From: Gemmatimonas sp.
GTDB taxonomy: Bacteria; Gemmatimonadota; Gemmatimonadetes; Gemmatimonadales; Gemmatimonadaceae
Assembly (NCBI GenBank): GCA_031414535.1
Contig: JANNVQ010000038.1
Location: 1-64,000 of the forward strand
DNA length: 64,000 bases
Reading direction: 5' to 3'
Below are positions 4,752 to 46,431 of the stretch, in pieces. Every line of letters begins with the position of its first letter. Position 1 is the first letter of the stretch. Below the pieces are notes generated by a model. That model was not told the DNA's origin, ran no database searches, and saw nothing but the letters and a program-made list of their open reading frames with translations. The translations under genes were made by a program, and so were the position numbers.

Positions 4752-6124
4752 GCATCAACCCCATAACGGGCCAACTTGCGGTGCAAGGTCGAGGGGTCGA
4801 TGCCCAACACTTCGGCGGCGCGGGTCTTATTCCCCTGCTCGCTCTGCAATACCCACTGGATGTAGGCGCGTTCAATCACTTCAAGCGTAGGGTTGGCCGC
4901 CACACGCTCGGCAATCAACGGCTCACTGCGCCGCTCCGTGATGCGCTCCGGCAGTGCGCTCAGACTGACCACTGGGCCGTGGCTAAGGATGAGCGCTCGC
5001 TCGAGCGCGTTCTCCAGTTCGCGCACATTGCCGGGCCAGTTGTAATTCAGCAAGGCATCCGCGGCCTCGTCCGAGAGCGACTTGGGCGCCTCACCACGCA
5101 GTGCGGCACCACTGCTCAAGAACGATTCCGCGAGCAGGGGAATATCCTCACGGCGCTCGCGCAGTGGCGGCAAGTGAATGGCGATGACGTTGAGGCGATA
5201 AAACAGATCGCGACGGAAGCCGCCGCGCTTGATCTCTTCTTCGAGGTCGCGGTTGGTGGCGGCGATGATGCGGGTGTCGATGGCCTGCGGATCTGTGGCG
5301 CCCACCGGAATGACTTCGCGATGCTGCAGCACGCGCAGCAGCTTCACCTGAGTGGCCGGCGTGGTCTCACCGATTTCGTCGAGGAAGAAGGTACCCCCCG
5401 CAGCAGCGGTGAAGAGTCCGTCCTTATCGCGGACTGCACCAGTGAAGGACCCTTTCACGTGGCCGAACAGTTCGCTCTCGAGCAGTCCCTCGGGGAGCGC
5501 GCCACAGTTGATAGTGGCGAACGAGGCGTCAGCGCGGGGCGACAGTTCGTGGATGTAGCGGGCCACGACTTCCTTGCCCGTGCCGGACTCTCCGGTGATG
5601 AGCACCGTGGACTCGGTGTGGGCCACGGCTTCGGCGAGGTTCAGTGCATCCAACCAGGCCCGATGCGCGCCAACCGGAGCGCCAGCACCGCGGCGCTCAC
5701 GACGACGAATCTCCTTCTTGAGTGACTTGTTCTCCAGCCGCAGGGCGCGGTGTTCGGCGGCCCGTTTGAGGATGGCCACGAGTTCGTCATTACGGAACGG
5801 CTTTTGGATGTAATAGAAGGCCCCCGCATTCACGGCCTGCATTGCCGTCTGCAGGGTCGCCTGCGCCGTCATCAGGATTACCGGAACTTCAGCGTCGTGT
5901 TCGCGCGCGGCGTTGAGCACTTCCACGCCACCCACGCCAGGCATACGCACATCTGAGATGATGATGTCTGGCGTGAGCTGCGGAATCTTTTCTAGCGCGG
6001 CCCGTCCTCCGTGCGCCGTGTGTACGTCAAAGCCCTCGGCGCGAAGCAAAATCTCCAGTGTTTGGAGAATACCGGACTCATCATCCACAACGAGGACAGT
6101 GGGACGGCGTTCGGTCTCGGTCAC
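4748..6124 (-). CDS. pilR: sigma54-dependent response regulator (PilR/NtrC family)
   Basis: Receiver domain (VVDDE, SDVRMP), AAA+ GESGTGKE, GSFTGA, FFLDEIGE, WPGNVREL, C-terminal Fis-type HTH. Confidence 0.88.
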   Translation of the reverse strand: MTETERRPTVLVVDDESGILQTLEILLRAEGFDVHTAHGGRAALEKIPQLTPDIIISDVRMPGVGGVEVLNAAREHDAEVPVILMTAQATLQTAMQAVNAGAFYYIQKPFRNDELVAILKRAAEHRALRLENKSLKKEIRRRERRGAGAPVGAHRAWLDALNLAEAVAHTESTVLITGESGTGKEVVARYIHELSPRADASFATINCGALPEGLLESELFGHVKGSFTGAVRDKDGLFTAAAGGTFFLDEIGETTPATQVKLLRVLQHREVIPVGATDPQAIDTRIIAATNRDLEEEIKRGGFRRDLFYRLNVIAIHLPPLRERREDIPLLAESFLSSGAALRGEAPKSLSDEAADALLNYNWPGNVRELENALERALILSHGPVVSLSALPERITERRSEPLIAERVAANPTLEVIERAYIQWVLQSEQGNKTRAAEVLGIDPSTLHRKLARYGVDA

Positions 6125-7800
6125 GTGGCAACTCCGGAGGGCGCACCCTCGGTCGGCAGATAAACAGTGAAGTGTGTTCCATCTTGGTCGCTATCCACGA
6201 GGATGACGCCTCGGTGCGCCTCGATGGCGCGGTGGACAACGGCAAGGCCGAGTCCGCTGCCACCGGGCTTGCTGGTCGCGAATGGTTCGAAGAGTCGGTC
6301 CTGCATATCCGGCGGAATGCCTTCTCCACGGTCACGTACGTCGATGACGAAGGCGTCTGAATGAAACGGGAGTCCGGTTGGGCATTCCGACGCCGCGAGG
6401 CGCCGAAGCGTGACGTCCACTTCTCCCGTCTCACCGGACGCCTGGCAAGCGTTTAGAACCAGGTTGAAGACCGCGCGGTGCAGCAGGTCTTCGTCGCCGG
6501 CCAGCGTGGCTGGATTGTCGGGCAGTAGTAGCTTCACCGTCACGGCCGCACCCCGGTCAGGGTGTGCGCCGGCAAGCGTGGTCGCGGCCCGAACGATATC
6601 CCGCAAATCGAGTTCGTCCCGCCGTGCTGCTTGTACGCGCGCAAAATCCAAGAACTCCGACAGCAAACGGGAAAGACGGTCTGTCTCTCGCGTGATCAGA
6701 TCGCCAAGCACTCGCTCGTCGGCGGTGGCGGCTTGGCGACGCGAGATCTGCTCCACGGCCGAGCGAATGCTCGCGAGCGGGTTCTTGATCTCGTGGGCCA
6801 GCGAGGCCGAGAGTTCGGCGACGGCCTCGAGCCGCTGGGCTCGCAAGCGCAGCGCTTCCAAACGCTTCTCATCAGAGATGTCCTGCACGATGACGGTCGT
6901 GGCACCGCCGACTGGACGTAGGTCGCCCGTCACGGACGTGGTGGTAATGCCCAATGGCATGACGCGACCCGCGTGCATGAGCGTGCCCTCCGACCGGGCG
7001 CTCGTCCGCTGTTCACCGATATGCGAGTCGATAGCTGCGGCCACGATTGGTGCCGAGGTCCGCAATCGCTCAAGGATCGGTGCGCCAGACAGCGTGTCGA
7101 AGGGCACACCCAACATCTGGCTCGCCGCTGGGTTGGCATAGAGCAGACGGCCCAGATCATCCACCGTGATGATGCCCGCCCGGATGTTGGCGAGGATGTC
7201 TGCAGCGCGGAGGCGAGCGCTGGCCAATTCCGCCTGCAGCTGCTCGCGCCCCAATCCGGCTTCCTGCAGTCGGGCGGCGATGTAGCTGGTGCCAATCACC
7301 ACGAGCACGAACACCACGAGCTGCAGCAGCAGCGGCACGGTGATGTCGCCGCCGCTCACCAAGAAGGCATCGCCCACATAGAGCACACTGCCCAGCATGG
7401 CCAGCAGCAGGGAGCTGCCGATGGGCAGGAGCAGGGCGGCGGTGGCGTTGACGAGGATGTAGAGCGCGGCAAATTGGGAATTACCGCCGCCGCTCAGGTG
7501 CACGATGACCGTGATGAGCAGCAGGTCGTGCACGAACTGCAGATAGAGGAAGCCAGGGCCCGCCTTCTGCCGGTTTACCTCGGTCCGGATGTACGAAACA
7601 GCCGTAAGCGCCATGGCCACCACGAAGGCCGAGGCCGCGATGACGGTGCTGACCGGGTTCGCGAAGAGGGCGAAGACCAGGGCCCACACGAAGTTGGCAC
7701 TCGCCGCAACGAGGCGGCCGACATAAATACCATTGAGCAGACGGCGGGAATCGAGCACCGCCAGCATTCGCTCAGATGTCCCCCCTCGCTCGACGCTCAC
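6121..7800 (-). CDS. pilS: Sensor histidine kinase, PilS-like (TM + PAS + HisKA + HATPase)
   Basis: About 6 TM helices, PAS-like segment, LAHEIKNPL, NLVLNA, DRGEG, FEPF, GSGLGL; overlaps the pilR start. Confidence 0.85.
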   Translation of the reverse strand: MSVERGGTSERMLAVLDSRRLLNGIYVGRLVAASANFVWALVFALFANPVSTVIAASAFVVAMALTAVSYIRTEVNRQKAGPGFLYLQFVHDLLLITVIVHLSGGGNSQFAALYILVNATAALLLPIGSSLLLAMLGSVLYVGDAFLVSGGDITVPLLLQLVVFVLVVIGTSYIAARLQEAGLGREQLQAELASARLRAADILANIRAGIITVDDLGRLLYANPAASQMLGVPFDTLSGAPILERLRTSAPIVAAAIDSHIGEQRTSARSEGTLMHAGRVMPLGITTTSVTGDLRPVGGATTVIVQDISDEKRLEALRLRAQRLEAVAELSASLAHEIKNPLASIRSAVEQISRRQAATADERVLGDLITRETDRLSRLLSEFLDFARVQAARRDELDLRDIVRAATTLAGAHPDRGAAVTVKLLLPDNPATLAGDEDLLHRAVFNLVLNACQASGETGEVDVTLRRLAASECPTGLPFHSDAFVIDVRDRGEGIPPDMQDRLFEPFATSKPGGSGLGLAVVHRAIEAHRGVILVDSDQDGTHFTVYLPTEGAPSGVAT

Positions 7801-45655: not shown

Positions 45656-45726
45656 GACCTGAGGACTCTGGGGGGCTGCATCCTCAGAAAACTACCAACG
45701 GAGGCGCCGTCGCGGGACGGTGCCTT

Positions 45727-46074
45727 TTAGTTGCTCGGTCGTGAGTCCGAACGATCGATGTCGAATAGCGCGCCCATATGCGTCTCCGTGAGGAGCCGCT
45801 GCACGAGGGAGGGCACCGAGAGGAGTCGCGTGCGAAGCCCACGTTCACGCGCGCGCTTCTGGAGGAGAATGAGGACGCCGAGTCCCGAGGCATCGAGCTC
45901 GACGACACCGGAAAGATCGAGATTCACCGAACTCTCACCGGCGGCCGAGGCCGACTCGAGGGCGTTGAGCACGTCTTGACGGAATTCAAGGCGGTAGTCC
46001 GCCGTGAGACGCGCGGGGCAAACGAGGGGAGTCATTGGATCGCCAGGGATATACAGGTAAGGCAGCGCGGTCAT
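45727..46074 (-). CDS. STAS domain protein (anti-anti-sigma-like)
   Basis: VNLDLSGVVELDASGLGVL motif; GGAGG RBS before ATG 46074 (alternative start 46035). Confidence 0.85.
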   Translation of the reverse strand: MTALPYLYIPGDPMTPLVCPARLTADYRLEFRQDVLNALESASAAGESSVNLDLSGVVELDASGLGVLILLQKRARERGLRTRLLSVPSLVQRLLTETHMGALFDIDRSDSRPSN

Positions 46075-46155
46075 GCGACCTCCGAGAGGAAGCCCCTCCC
46101 CACAGCGACCCAGAACTGCTCCTGCTGCCCGATGGGCACCTGGCCCATCCCTCTT

Positions 46156-46240
46156 CACTTCGGCAACCGGACGATCTCGGTAATCCGAGATTCCTGGCTT
46201 TGCGTCCCCGCCTCGCAGCGAGTTTGCTCTTGTCGGTGTG
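46156..46240 (-). ncRNA. GEMM-I (c-di-GMP-I class) riboswitch aptamer, A20 variant
   Basis: Minus strand CACACCGACAAGAGCAAACUCGCU-GCGA-GGCGGGGACGCAAAGCCAGGAAUCUCGG-AUUA-CCGAGAUCGUCCGGUUGCCGAAGUG: GCAAAC, GNRA-capped P2, GACGCAAAGCC junction, P3, GGUUGCCG. Confidence 0.9.
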
Positions 46241-46267
46241 GCGAATTGCTTTGCACTGCTAAAGTAT

Positions 46268-46283
46268 GGCGAGATGCGTGCCA
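46268..46283 (-). promoter_or_regulatory. sigma54 promoter driving the riboswitch-STAS transcript
   Basis: TGGCACGCATCTCGCC with GG-N10-GC spacing; predicted TSS near 46257, about 17 nt before the aptamer; AT-rich tract upstream. Confidence 0.75.
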
Positions 46284-46431
46284 AGTTATGGCGCGACGTA
46301 ACCCGTTGTTGTTGAGCAGTTTAAGTCATTATCACAACGTGATTTTAGGGAAAAGAGGCGCGGCCTGCGGCGGTAGTGGCGCAATGCGCGTCGCTGTCTG
46401 GTTTCTATTCGCCTTTCCGGTTTAAACGGCA

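Follow-up and report, generated by a model that had tools for sequence, protein, structure and literature searches.

GEMM-I aptamers and the base at position 20

Riboswitches of the GEMM-I (c-di-GMP-I) class and their A20 subtype have been known since 2015. In the Vc2 aptamer of Vibrio cholerae, the first ligand base is read by a G, and the pocket positions are numbered G20, A47 and C92 in the available parts of PMC6140456 and PMC5888326; the A20 subtype carries an adenine at the first of these. As given in the accessible portion of PMC6140456, wild-type Vc2 (G20) binds cyclic AMP-GMP (cGAMP) with a dissociation constant (Kd) of 10 uM, and its G20A mutant binds cyclic di-GMP (c-di-GMP) at 53 nM and cGAMP at 120 nM. 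A natural A20 aptamer of Clostridium beijerinckii, Cbe 1-2, displays Kd values of 30 nM for c-di-GMP and 463 nM for cGAMP, and the Geobacter aptamer Gs1761 displays 660 nM and 0.53 nM, respectively. The same portion attributes the binding of c-di-GMP by A20 aptamers (30-660 nM) to a protonated adenine, holds their selectivity to be tuned by the stability of stem P1 and by other features, and presents A20 as necessary, not sufficient, for cGAMP selectivity, Vc2 G20A and Cbe 1-2 being bispecific. The present work concerns an A20 aptamer on the minus strand of a 64,000-nucleotide (nt) stretch of Gemmatimonas sp. DNA (GenBank assembly GCA_031414535.1, contig JANNVQ010000038.1, positions 1 to 64,000), termed the window below. 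It lies between a sigma54-type promoter and a gene encoding a STAS-domain protein, upstream of cytochrome c maturation (ccm) genes.

The explanation slightly favoured for the locus as a whole is that a sigma54 promoter, followed by an A20 riboswitch responding to c-di-GMP or to both dinucleotides, would dose through translation a STAS protein that is proof against its kinase. The features that carry this explanation are the following:

46332..46342, minus strand: palindrome TCACGTTGTGA (TCAC-N3-GTGA), candidate upstream activator site, starting 59 nt upstream of TGGCAC
46269..46283, minus strand: sigma54-type promoter TGGCACGCATCTCGC, with TGGCAC as the -24 element, TCGC as the -12 element and consensus spacing
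46159..46238, minus strand: GEMM-I (c-di-GMP-I) aptamer with A at the G20 equivalent and a GCGA tetraloop hairpin (RF01051 match and covariation)
45727..46074, minus strand: gene for a STAS-domain protein of 115 residues with the motif DASGLG (Pfam), ATG at 46074 and stop at 45727

Aptamer identity and pocket bases

When the whole window is scanned with cmscan against Rfam 15 at gathering cut-offs, a single match is obtained, that of RF01051 (c-di-GMP-I) at 46238..46159 on the minus strand. It scores 66.2 bits against a cut-off of 35 (E 9.4e-11) and is full-length, covering model positions 1-87 of 87. No other GEMM-I copy is found in the source assembly (3.70 Mb, 58 contigs, 98.4% complete). 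The Rfam structure, applied to 20 orthologous aptamers, leaves 98.9% of the cells paired, with 7 of the 22 pairs changed on both sides; none of 500 shuffles matches the observed values, and slid controls reach 25-47% pairing. The aptamer proposed in an earlier sequence-only reading of this DNA is borne out by this Infernal search.

The A at 46228 aligns to model position 11, a consensus G that is unpaired and directly 5' of the first-hairpin G-C pair. Model positions 11, 38 and 83 (G, A and C) show spacings of 27 and 72, and because these equal the spacings of G20, A47 and C92, the label A20 is accepted for 46228. Position 11 is thus what we take to be Vc2 G20, a mapping made from spacing and not from an aligned Vc2 sequence. 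The A47 equivalent (model position 38, A) is kept inside ACGCAAAG, and the C92 equivalent (model position 83, C) is kept at 46163 inside UUGCCGAA; with numbering mapped by spacing, both are invariant across the 20 orthologs. The sequence-only reading had likewise placed an A, equivalent to G20, directly before GCAAAC and had recognised the retained C92. The window element is confirmed as a genuine GEMM-I aptamer whose G20 equivalent is A.

Promoter, palindrome and distribution of the riboswitch

Relatives of the STAS protein are encoded in loci of Gemmatimonas, Gemmatimonadaceae or Gemmatimonadota metagenome-assembled genomes. Eighty Gemmatimonadaceae loci were collected by STAS similarity; two of them (L055 and L056) are one stretch taken twice, and several repeat genomes of a separate set of 61 related genomes. 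A GEMM-I match is present in 33 of these 61 genomes, including 19 of the 36 other members of the genus. In 18 of these 19, and in one genome from a different family, the best match is flanked by a divergent acetyl-CoA synthetase gene and a STAS homolog. With a covariance model built from the orthologous aptamers, the aptamer is detected upstream of STAS in 52 of the 80 loci. Twenty of the 28 aptamer-negative loci were rechecked against Rfam at the gathering threshold and gave no match.

Within the 64 kb, TGGCACGCATCTCGC is the sole match to TGGCACGNNNNTYGC. Shuffled windows give a mean of 0.21 matches, with at least one in 18 of 100, so that on single-window statistics alone the sigma54 box is weak; its -12 element is TCGC, not TTGC. 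It is, however, conserved in relatives: TGGCA[CT]-N5-TNGC is found upstream of STAS in 48 of the 52 riboswitch-bearing loci and in 21 of the 28 that lack the riboswitch. The box read earlier from the sequence stands, located here at 46283-46269 (minus strand). The genome encodes one rpoN and has seven strong Sigma54_activat matches. One of these seven enhancer-binding proteins is encoded in the window itself, 40 kb from the studied promoter (5174-6459, minus strand), its Sigma54_activat match (5174-5671) lying beside a weak HATPase match (6214-6459).

In 50 of the 70 strict-motif loci, riboswitch-less loci included, a TCAC-N3..5-[GT]TGA palindrome precedes the sigma54 motif by 57-60 nt. It is a candidate activator site, with the acetyl-CoA synthetase and STAS genes diverging from either side of it. 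Palindrome, sigma54 promoter and STAS gene are kept with or without the riboswitch and therefore form the conserved core of the locus. The riboswitch, to judge from its distribution, is a leader insert kept in most lineages, not in all. In locus L069, upstream of 1743, the aptamer is cleanly deleted and its 5' flank (CGCCACACCGAC) and the downstream leader are retained, as seen by comparison with the near relatives L059 and L063.

Ligand

Nine GGDEF matches are found in the source genome. Six possess NDxxGHxxGD, four of these with an intact GG[DE]EF; the remaining three are degenerate. An atypical cyclase-like domain is seen in a 347-residue frame at G000:C7:84748-84987 (minus strand), with a partial GGDEF-like match, YNDRYSYYDGD and GGDDF. 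The specificity-position signature of Hypr GGDEF enzymes is described in the available part of PMC6456294; none of the nine matches in this 98.4% complete assembly carries Ser or Thr at that position, and the genome has no SMODS cyclase match. As a DNA pattern, the signature detects only N-D-x-x-G-H-x-x-G-[S/T/C/W/R], and 9 of its 20 matches are not GGDEF genes, among them its single match in the source genome. Read in this way, no Hypr-signature GGDEF gene occurs in 37 genomes of the genus, and the pattern has no match in five more genomes, of which three have a G20 and two an A20 version of the STAS riboswitch. Asp is found in each of the 30 GGDEF loci that were read among the 37 matches of five other genus members. 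The sequence-only reading had proposed that cGAMP signalling outside cyclic-oligonucleotide-based antiphage signalling systems (CBASS) operates in this lineage, supplied by a Hypr-type cyclase; as far as gene content can tell, the genome holds no such enzyme, nor do the 37 genomes of its genus, and the proposal is not upheld.

The base at position 20 was tabulated for 70 of the 76 GEMM-I matches from related genomes, six among the weakest being left out. In the genus, 35 copies from 20 genomes comprise 34 with A20 and one with G20 (one weak match, in G024, left out). The only GEMM-I sensors of the genus are therefore A20, while its cyclases, being of the Asp type, look GTP-specific. Among the 52 STAS-linked aptamers, A is found in 48 and G in four, and the G variants stand beside near-identical A orthologs: L063 (G) next to L059 (A), and L103, L106 and L110 (G) next to L101 (A). 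Such alternation fits a ligand bound by both variants.

Sister families offer a different picture of the enzymes. Genes with NDxxGHxxGS and GGDEF, verified as true GGDEF, occur in 11 of the 24 genomes of two such families (L120 at 436-1839 on the plus strand, L121-L124 and L131-L136), and the L120 protein is a MASE1-GGDEF by Pfam. These Ser-type MASE1-GGDEF proteins are candidate cGAMP synthases of Gemmatimonadales. A tblastn search for them in the source genome returned no ortholog, the best match having 39% identity over the GGDEF domain only. In one sister family (f2), G20 and A20 copies of GEMM-I are both present. A second A20 class, defined by ACGCAGAG, GCCGCCAGC and a P1 of GCUG/CAGC, is found at L169-L171, L176, L178 and L185, and also at L009, L012, L013, L022 and L024; in one genome it forms triple tandem copies about 157 nt apart (G039:C36:1983-2385 and G039:C3:4761-5163). 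In f2, this class is present in all five genomes with the Ser-type enzyme and in none of the seven without it that have a classified GEMM-I. Ten genomes of the source genus carry the class without the enzyme. The association in f2 is a lead, not a test, because its genomes are kin and because of these ten.

The most likely ligand of the window aptamer, judged from gene content and published affinities, is c-di-GMP, or else both dinucleotides would be sensed, because no Hypr or SMODS enzyme is found and published A20 aptamers bind c-di-GMP with nanomolar Kd. The caveat, already raised in the sequence-only reading, that some A20 aptamers are promiscuous is well founded in the Vc2 G20A and Cbe 1-2 values of the accessible part of PMC6140456. 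Several points weigh on the other side. With A in 48 of the 52 aptamers linked to STAS, there may have been selection for a pocket that reads adenine, and thus for cGAMP. The presence of Ser-type MASE1-GGDEF proteins in sister families makes cGAMP chemistry available in the order. The assemblies are drafts, with a completeness of 65-99% for those other than the source, so that the absence of a gene is weak evidence; and, given the way in which selectivity is tuned, the specificity of an A20 aptamer is not readable from its sequence.

The prevalence of A20 among the STAS-linked aptamers and, with 34 copies out of 35, in the genus could also be explained by a cGAMP-selective aptamer of the GEMM-Ib type, its cGAMP coming from an enzyme invisible to the signature, such as an Asp-type GGDEF with an altered partner site or a new cyclase. 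The f2 pattern suggests that coupling of A20 to cGAMP is possible in the order, and Gs1761, with its much tighter binding of cGAMP in the available text of PMC6140456, provides a precedent. This alternative is nevertheless rather unlikely. It has to contend with the lack of Ser/Thr-type GGDEF and SMODS matches in the genome, of a Hypr signature in the genus and of Ser or Thr in the 30 further GGDEF loci, and the f2 association fails in the genus. Moreover, G20 variants arise among otherwise near-identical orthologs, and a natural A20 aptamer may prefer c-di-GMP, as Cbe 1-2 does according to the same text.

Leader and expression platform

The leader of the window contains the following elements between promoter and start codon:

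46232..46243, minus strand: aptamer 5' flank CGCCACACCGAC, including the 5' strand of P1, complementary to 46110-46098 in the minimum free energy fold
46121..46130, minus strand: GGGCAGCAGG box, candidate anti-aptamer element, complementary to the aptamer 3' strand CCGGUUGCCG (46170-46161)
46098..46110, minus strand: GGTCGCTGTGGGG box, complementary to the 5' flank and overlapping GGGAGG, which is able to pair with CCUCUC (from fold and position)
46079..46089, minus strand: CCUCUC (46089-46084) beside the Shine-Dalgarno (SD) sequence GGAGG (46083-46079), a possible sequestering hairpin read from the sequence

No terminator-like site was found between the aptamer and the ATG in this leader, and control is therefore probably translational. 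Two long-range pairings may connect the aptamer to the ribosome site. In the first, the aptamer 3' strand CCGG[UC]UGCCG is complementary to a CGGCA[AG]C box that follows after 20-55 nt, an arrangement that recurs in relatives. When each 3' 12-mer is paired by RNAduplex with the leader downstream of it, z averages -1.56 relative to shuffled 12-mers and is below -1.5 in 24 of 53 leaders. Several loci have perfect anti-aptamer partners of 8-10 bp (CGGCAACCGG or CGGCAGCC), and some U-A to C-G changes are matched. The second would join the 5' flank to a GTCGG box that lies 10-25 nt ahead of the start codon in most relatives. A second clade has the flank CGCTGC..CCGAC opposite GTCGG..GCAGCG, so that CGCCAC:GTGGCG in one clade becomes CGCTGC:GCAGCG in the other. 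This helix is a lead from position and covariation only.

Other results weigh against such a platform. The energy of the duplex between 5' flank and GTCGG box is not better than that of shuffled strands (z about +1 to -2; 39 leaders scored, 7 skipped), and the anti-aptamer duplex of the window itself is weak, with a z of -0.5. As for the ribosome site, CCUCUC is able to pair either with the SD or with the GGGAGG upstream of it. In constrained folds, the probability that the SD of the window is unpaired is 0.13 in the free leader, rising to 0.27 with the aptamer side withheld, a weak lean to ON. Across 51 leaders (two of 53 were dropped, no start codon being assignable), the comparison of the full-leader ensemble with the downstream part folded alone yields no consistent sign for SD accessibility, which goes up in 14, goes down in 21 and stays within 0.05 in 16. 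With 14/51 up and 21/51 down, a thermodynamic ON/OFF call was dropped.

In a more distant clade (L091, L081, L096 and similar loci), the expression platform contains a GGAGG-N4-ATG that precedes the usual STAS start by 13 codons and shares its frame. This ATG may be used as another start of the gene or may open a short reading frame in the leader.

STAS protein and its candidate partner

The STAS gene (46074-45727) is preceded by the SD GGAGG at 46083-46079, 5 nt before the ATG. Its product is matched by the Pfam profiles STAS_2 (E 1.3e-11) and STAS (E 5.7e-08), in agreement with the gene call of the sequence-only reading. The best solved relatives are the anti-sigma factor antagonists TM1442 (2.5e-10), SpoIIAA (2.8e-05) and RsbV. 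In antagonists, the Ser that follows Asp in the D-S-x-G-L-G loop is the phosphorylated residue: the loop reads DSSGLG in SpoIIAA (1th8_B), DSAGLG in TM1442 (1sbo_A) and DSTGLG in RsbV (6m36_B). In the window protein and in 17 of the 19 riboswitch-anchored orthologs it reads DASGLG, with Ala replacing the Ser directly after the conserved Asp. The same DASGLG is found in a deposited SpoIIAA variant (1tid_B), presumably a non-phosphorylatable mutant.

No kinase or phosphatase gene adjoins the STAS gene. The genome has a single canonical module of STAS, RsbW-like kinase and GAF-PP2C phosphatase, on a contig other than that of the window (G000:C41), with the kinase gene at L141 1517-1948, and an RsbW-like kinase is present in 41 of 41 related genomes. 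When the complex of this kinase and the riboswitch-linked STAS protein is predicted, at least 87% of the contacts are shared between runs, and the pLDDT of the partner is at least 74. The partner-switching role suggested earlier is thus plausible for a relative of the antagonists, and atypical in its Ala for Ser and in the absence of an adjacent kinase or phosphatase gene. Some results count against a kinase-proof antagonist. The score of the NCBIfam model for anti-sigma factor antagonists, TIGR00377, is 31.7 bits, under its cut-off of 53.45, and the Ser kept one residue further on in DASGLG might be phosphorylated. The predicted complex scores 0.34, the best of three controls scoring 0.00, which is weak support: of 157 solved complexes, 116 reach the mark, as do 2 of 215 mismatched pairs, and 18 of the 157 and both mismatches fall at a score of 0.60 or less. 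Since a STAS protein and an RsbW-like kinase are a textbook pair, the score may moreover reflect likeness only.

The STAS profile also matches MlaB chains weakly (E 0.002-0.003), and the gene lies directly upstream of that of an ABC ATPase, as would suit an MlaB-like accessory subunit of a CcmAB ABC exporter instead of an anti-sigma antagonist. This role is very improbable and was dropped because STAS is conserved without ccmA in 48 of the 80 loci; promoter and riboswitch are conserved along with it where ccmA is absent, and the top solved relatives are the antagonists given above.

Downstream ccm genes

Beyond the STAS gene, the minus strand of the window carries:

45656..45726, minus strand: STAS-ccmA spacer, with a GC-rich hairpin and terminator-like site (45712-45696) followed by GGTAGTTTTC
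45655-44957, minus strand: ccmA (Pfam ABC_tran)
44960-44265, minus strand: ccmB (Pfam CcmB)
44261-43563, minus strand: ccmC (Pfam Cytochrom_C_asm)
43563-43429, minus strand: ccmD candidate of 44 residues, by position only, with no Pfam match

The 44-residue open reading frame overlaps the ccmC stop and the start of ppa, and shows one hydrophobic stretch and a basic tail; the ccm genes are followed by this pyrophosphatase gene. Of the ccmABCD cluster named in the sequence-only reading, ccmA, ccmB and ccmC are thereby supported by Pfam, and ccmD has a positional candidate only.

The 71-nt gap between STAS and ccmA, on the same strand, is as first read. Its terminator-like site is weak, with six pairs and a T-run set off from the stem. 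In relatives, the corresponding spacers (60-195 nt) contain strong hairpins and a recurring CCGT[TC]CC..TA[GC]NNTT. The motif comes after a GC-rich hairpin and consists of CCGT[TC]CC and, some 17-22 nt further on, TA[GC]NNTT; it may act as a non-standard type of promoter for the ccm genes. The TAGTTT that had been pointed out as a possible separate -10 element of ccmA falls inside this promoter-like motif, which lends weight to that caveat.

The gene ccmA is found 3' of STAS in 32 of the 80 loci, all of them from the closest relatives, and 23 of these 32 have the riboswitch. In another 29 loci, riboswitch and STAS occur without ccmA and are followed, for example, by gamma-glutamyltranspeptidase and pyrophosphatase genes (L096) or by unrelated genes (L103). 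Control of ccmABCD by the riboswitch, as initially suggested, is not supported by this set. The linkage is limited to close relatives, and read-through into ccmA is possible without being a conserved logic. An explanation in which STAS and ccmABC(D) form one transcript, the dinucleotide setting heme export capacity, could draw on the shared strand, the short gap with its weak terminator-like site and the loci that combine riboswitch, STAS and ccmA. It is unlikely in view of the 29 loci lacking ccmA and of spacer hairpins and motifs that resemble a separate promoter; in addition, translational control at the STAS ribosome site need not reach ccmA.

Proposed mechanism and its significance

The mechanism slightly favoured, a sigma54-driven A20 riboswitch dosing a kinase-proof STAS protein, would operate as follows. 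Sigma54-RNA polymerase and an enhancer-binding protein, probably bound to the palindrome 59 nt upstream, would transcribe a leader of about 180 nt that carries the GEMM-I aptamer, in which the ligand-reading position 20 is A. Binding of the ligand would close P1 and the pocket, and the aptamer 5' flank and 3' strand would be withdrawn from the conserved complementary boxes downstream, altering access to the STAS ribosome site. Control would probably be translational, with about an even chance that the ligand turns expression on and a somewhat smaller one that it turns it off. The ligand would most likely be c-di-GMP made by the four intact Asp-type GG[DE]EF cyclases of the genome, the A20 aptamer serving as a lower-affinity or bispecific sensor, not a cGAMP-selective one. 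The STAS protein, with Ala in place of the phospho-Ser, would act as a non-phosphorylatable antagonist, titrating the single RsbW-like anti-sigma kinase by its amount and not by its phosphorylation. The ccm genes would be neighbours at the level of the genus and would probably have a promoter of their own.

The element itself is not new: it is a GEMM-I with the known A20 variation, found in a new phylum and gene context and under a sigma54 promoter. What gives it interest is, in the first place, a genus that apparently combines A20-only GEMM-I sensors with Asp-type diguanylate cyclases only, and thereby offers a natural test, outside Geobacter, of the equation of A20 with cGAMP. It would stand as a natural counter-example to that equation, and cautions against annotating cGAMP signalling from base 20 alone. 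Second, the Ala at the usual phospho-site of the STAS protein suggests a partner-switching circuit in which the amount of a kinase-proof antagonist is set by a cyclic dinucleotide; in a text search of the literature, no paper was found that connects a c-di-GMP riboswitch with an anti-sigma factor antagonist. Third, control would act in two layers, first at a sigma54 promoter with its palindrome at fixed distance and then at a riboswitch, an arrangement conserved across the family and testable in cultured Gemmatimonas.

A more far-reaching proposal is that of a cGAMP pathway in Gemmatimonadota, in which a cGAMP-selective A20 riboswitch, a synthase missed by the signature and a non-phosphorylatable STAS decoy would override the single partner-switching module. 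If true, it would connect a cyclic dinucleotide with a sigma factor wholly through an RNA sensor under sigma54 control. The proposal is considered quite improbable. A text search of the literature found no paper linking Gemmatimonadetes to cGAMP and GGDEF.

Comparison with known systems

The window aptamer resembles GEMM-I of the Vc2 type in its full-length model match, in its two hairpins with a GNRA loop, in its covariation and in the conserved pocket strands ACGCAAAG and GCCGAA. It differs from Vc2 by the A, instead of G, where the first ligand base is read, by its sigma54 promoter and by an expression platform without a terminator.

With the Geobacter GEMM-Ib aptamers Gs1761 and Gm0970, as described in the available parts of PMC6140456, PMC6456294 and PMC8835794, it shares the A at the G20 equivalent, the retained C92 and the fold family. 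In contrast to Geobacter, its genome and genus are without a Hypr GGDEF (GacA-type, Ser348 with GGDEF), and the terminator-based ON platform described for Geobacter in these parts is absent. The target also differs, a STAS regulator here and cytochromes or pili in Geobacter.

The STAS protein aligns with SpoIIAA, RsbV and TM1442 (PDB 1th8, 6m36 and 1sbo) in its STAS fold profile, its D-x-x-G-L-G loop and its C-terminal helix motifs. It departs from them by Ala for Ser after the Asp, as in the SpoIIAA variant 1tid_B, by the absence of a neighbouring kinase or phosphatase gene and by a score under the NCBIfam cut-off.

Further counterparts of the aptamer are the bispecific Vc2 G20A and Cbe 1-2, with which it has in common A20 and no evident need for cGAMP, as far as these two are covered in the accessible portion of PMC6140456. 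It stands apart from them by its phylum and gene context. By analogy, the window aptamer is predicted to behave like Vc2 G20A and Cbe 1-2, which bind c-di-GMP at 30-53 nM according to that portion.

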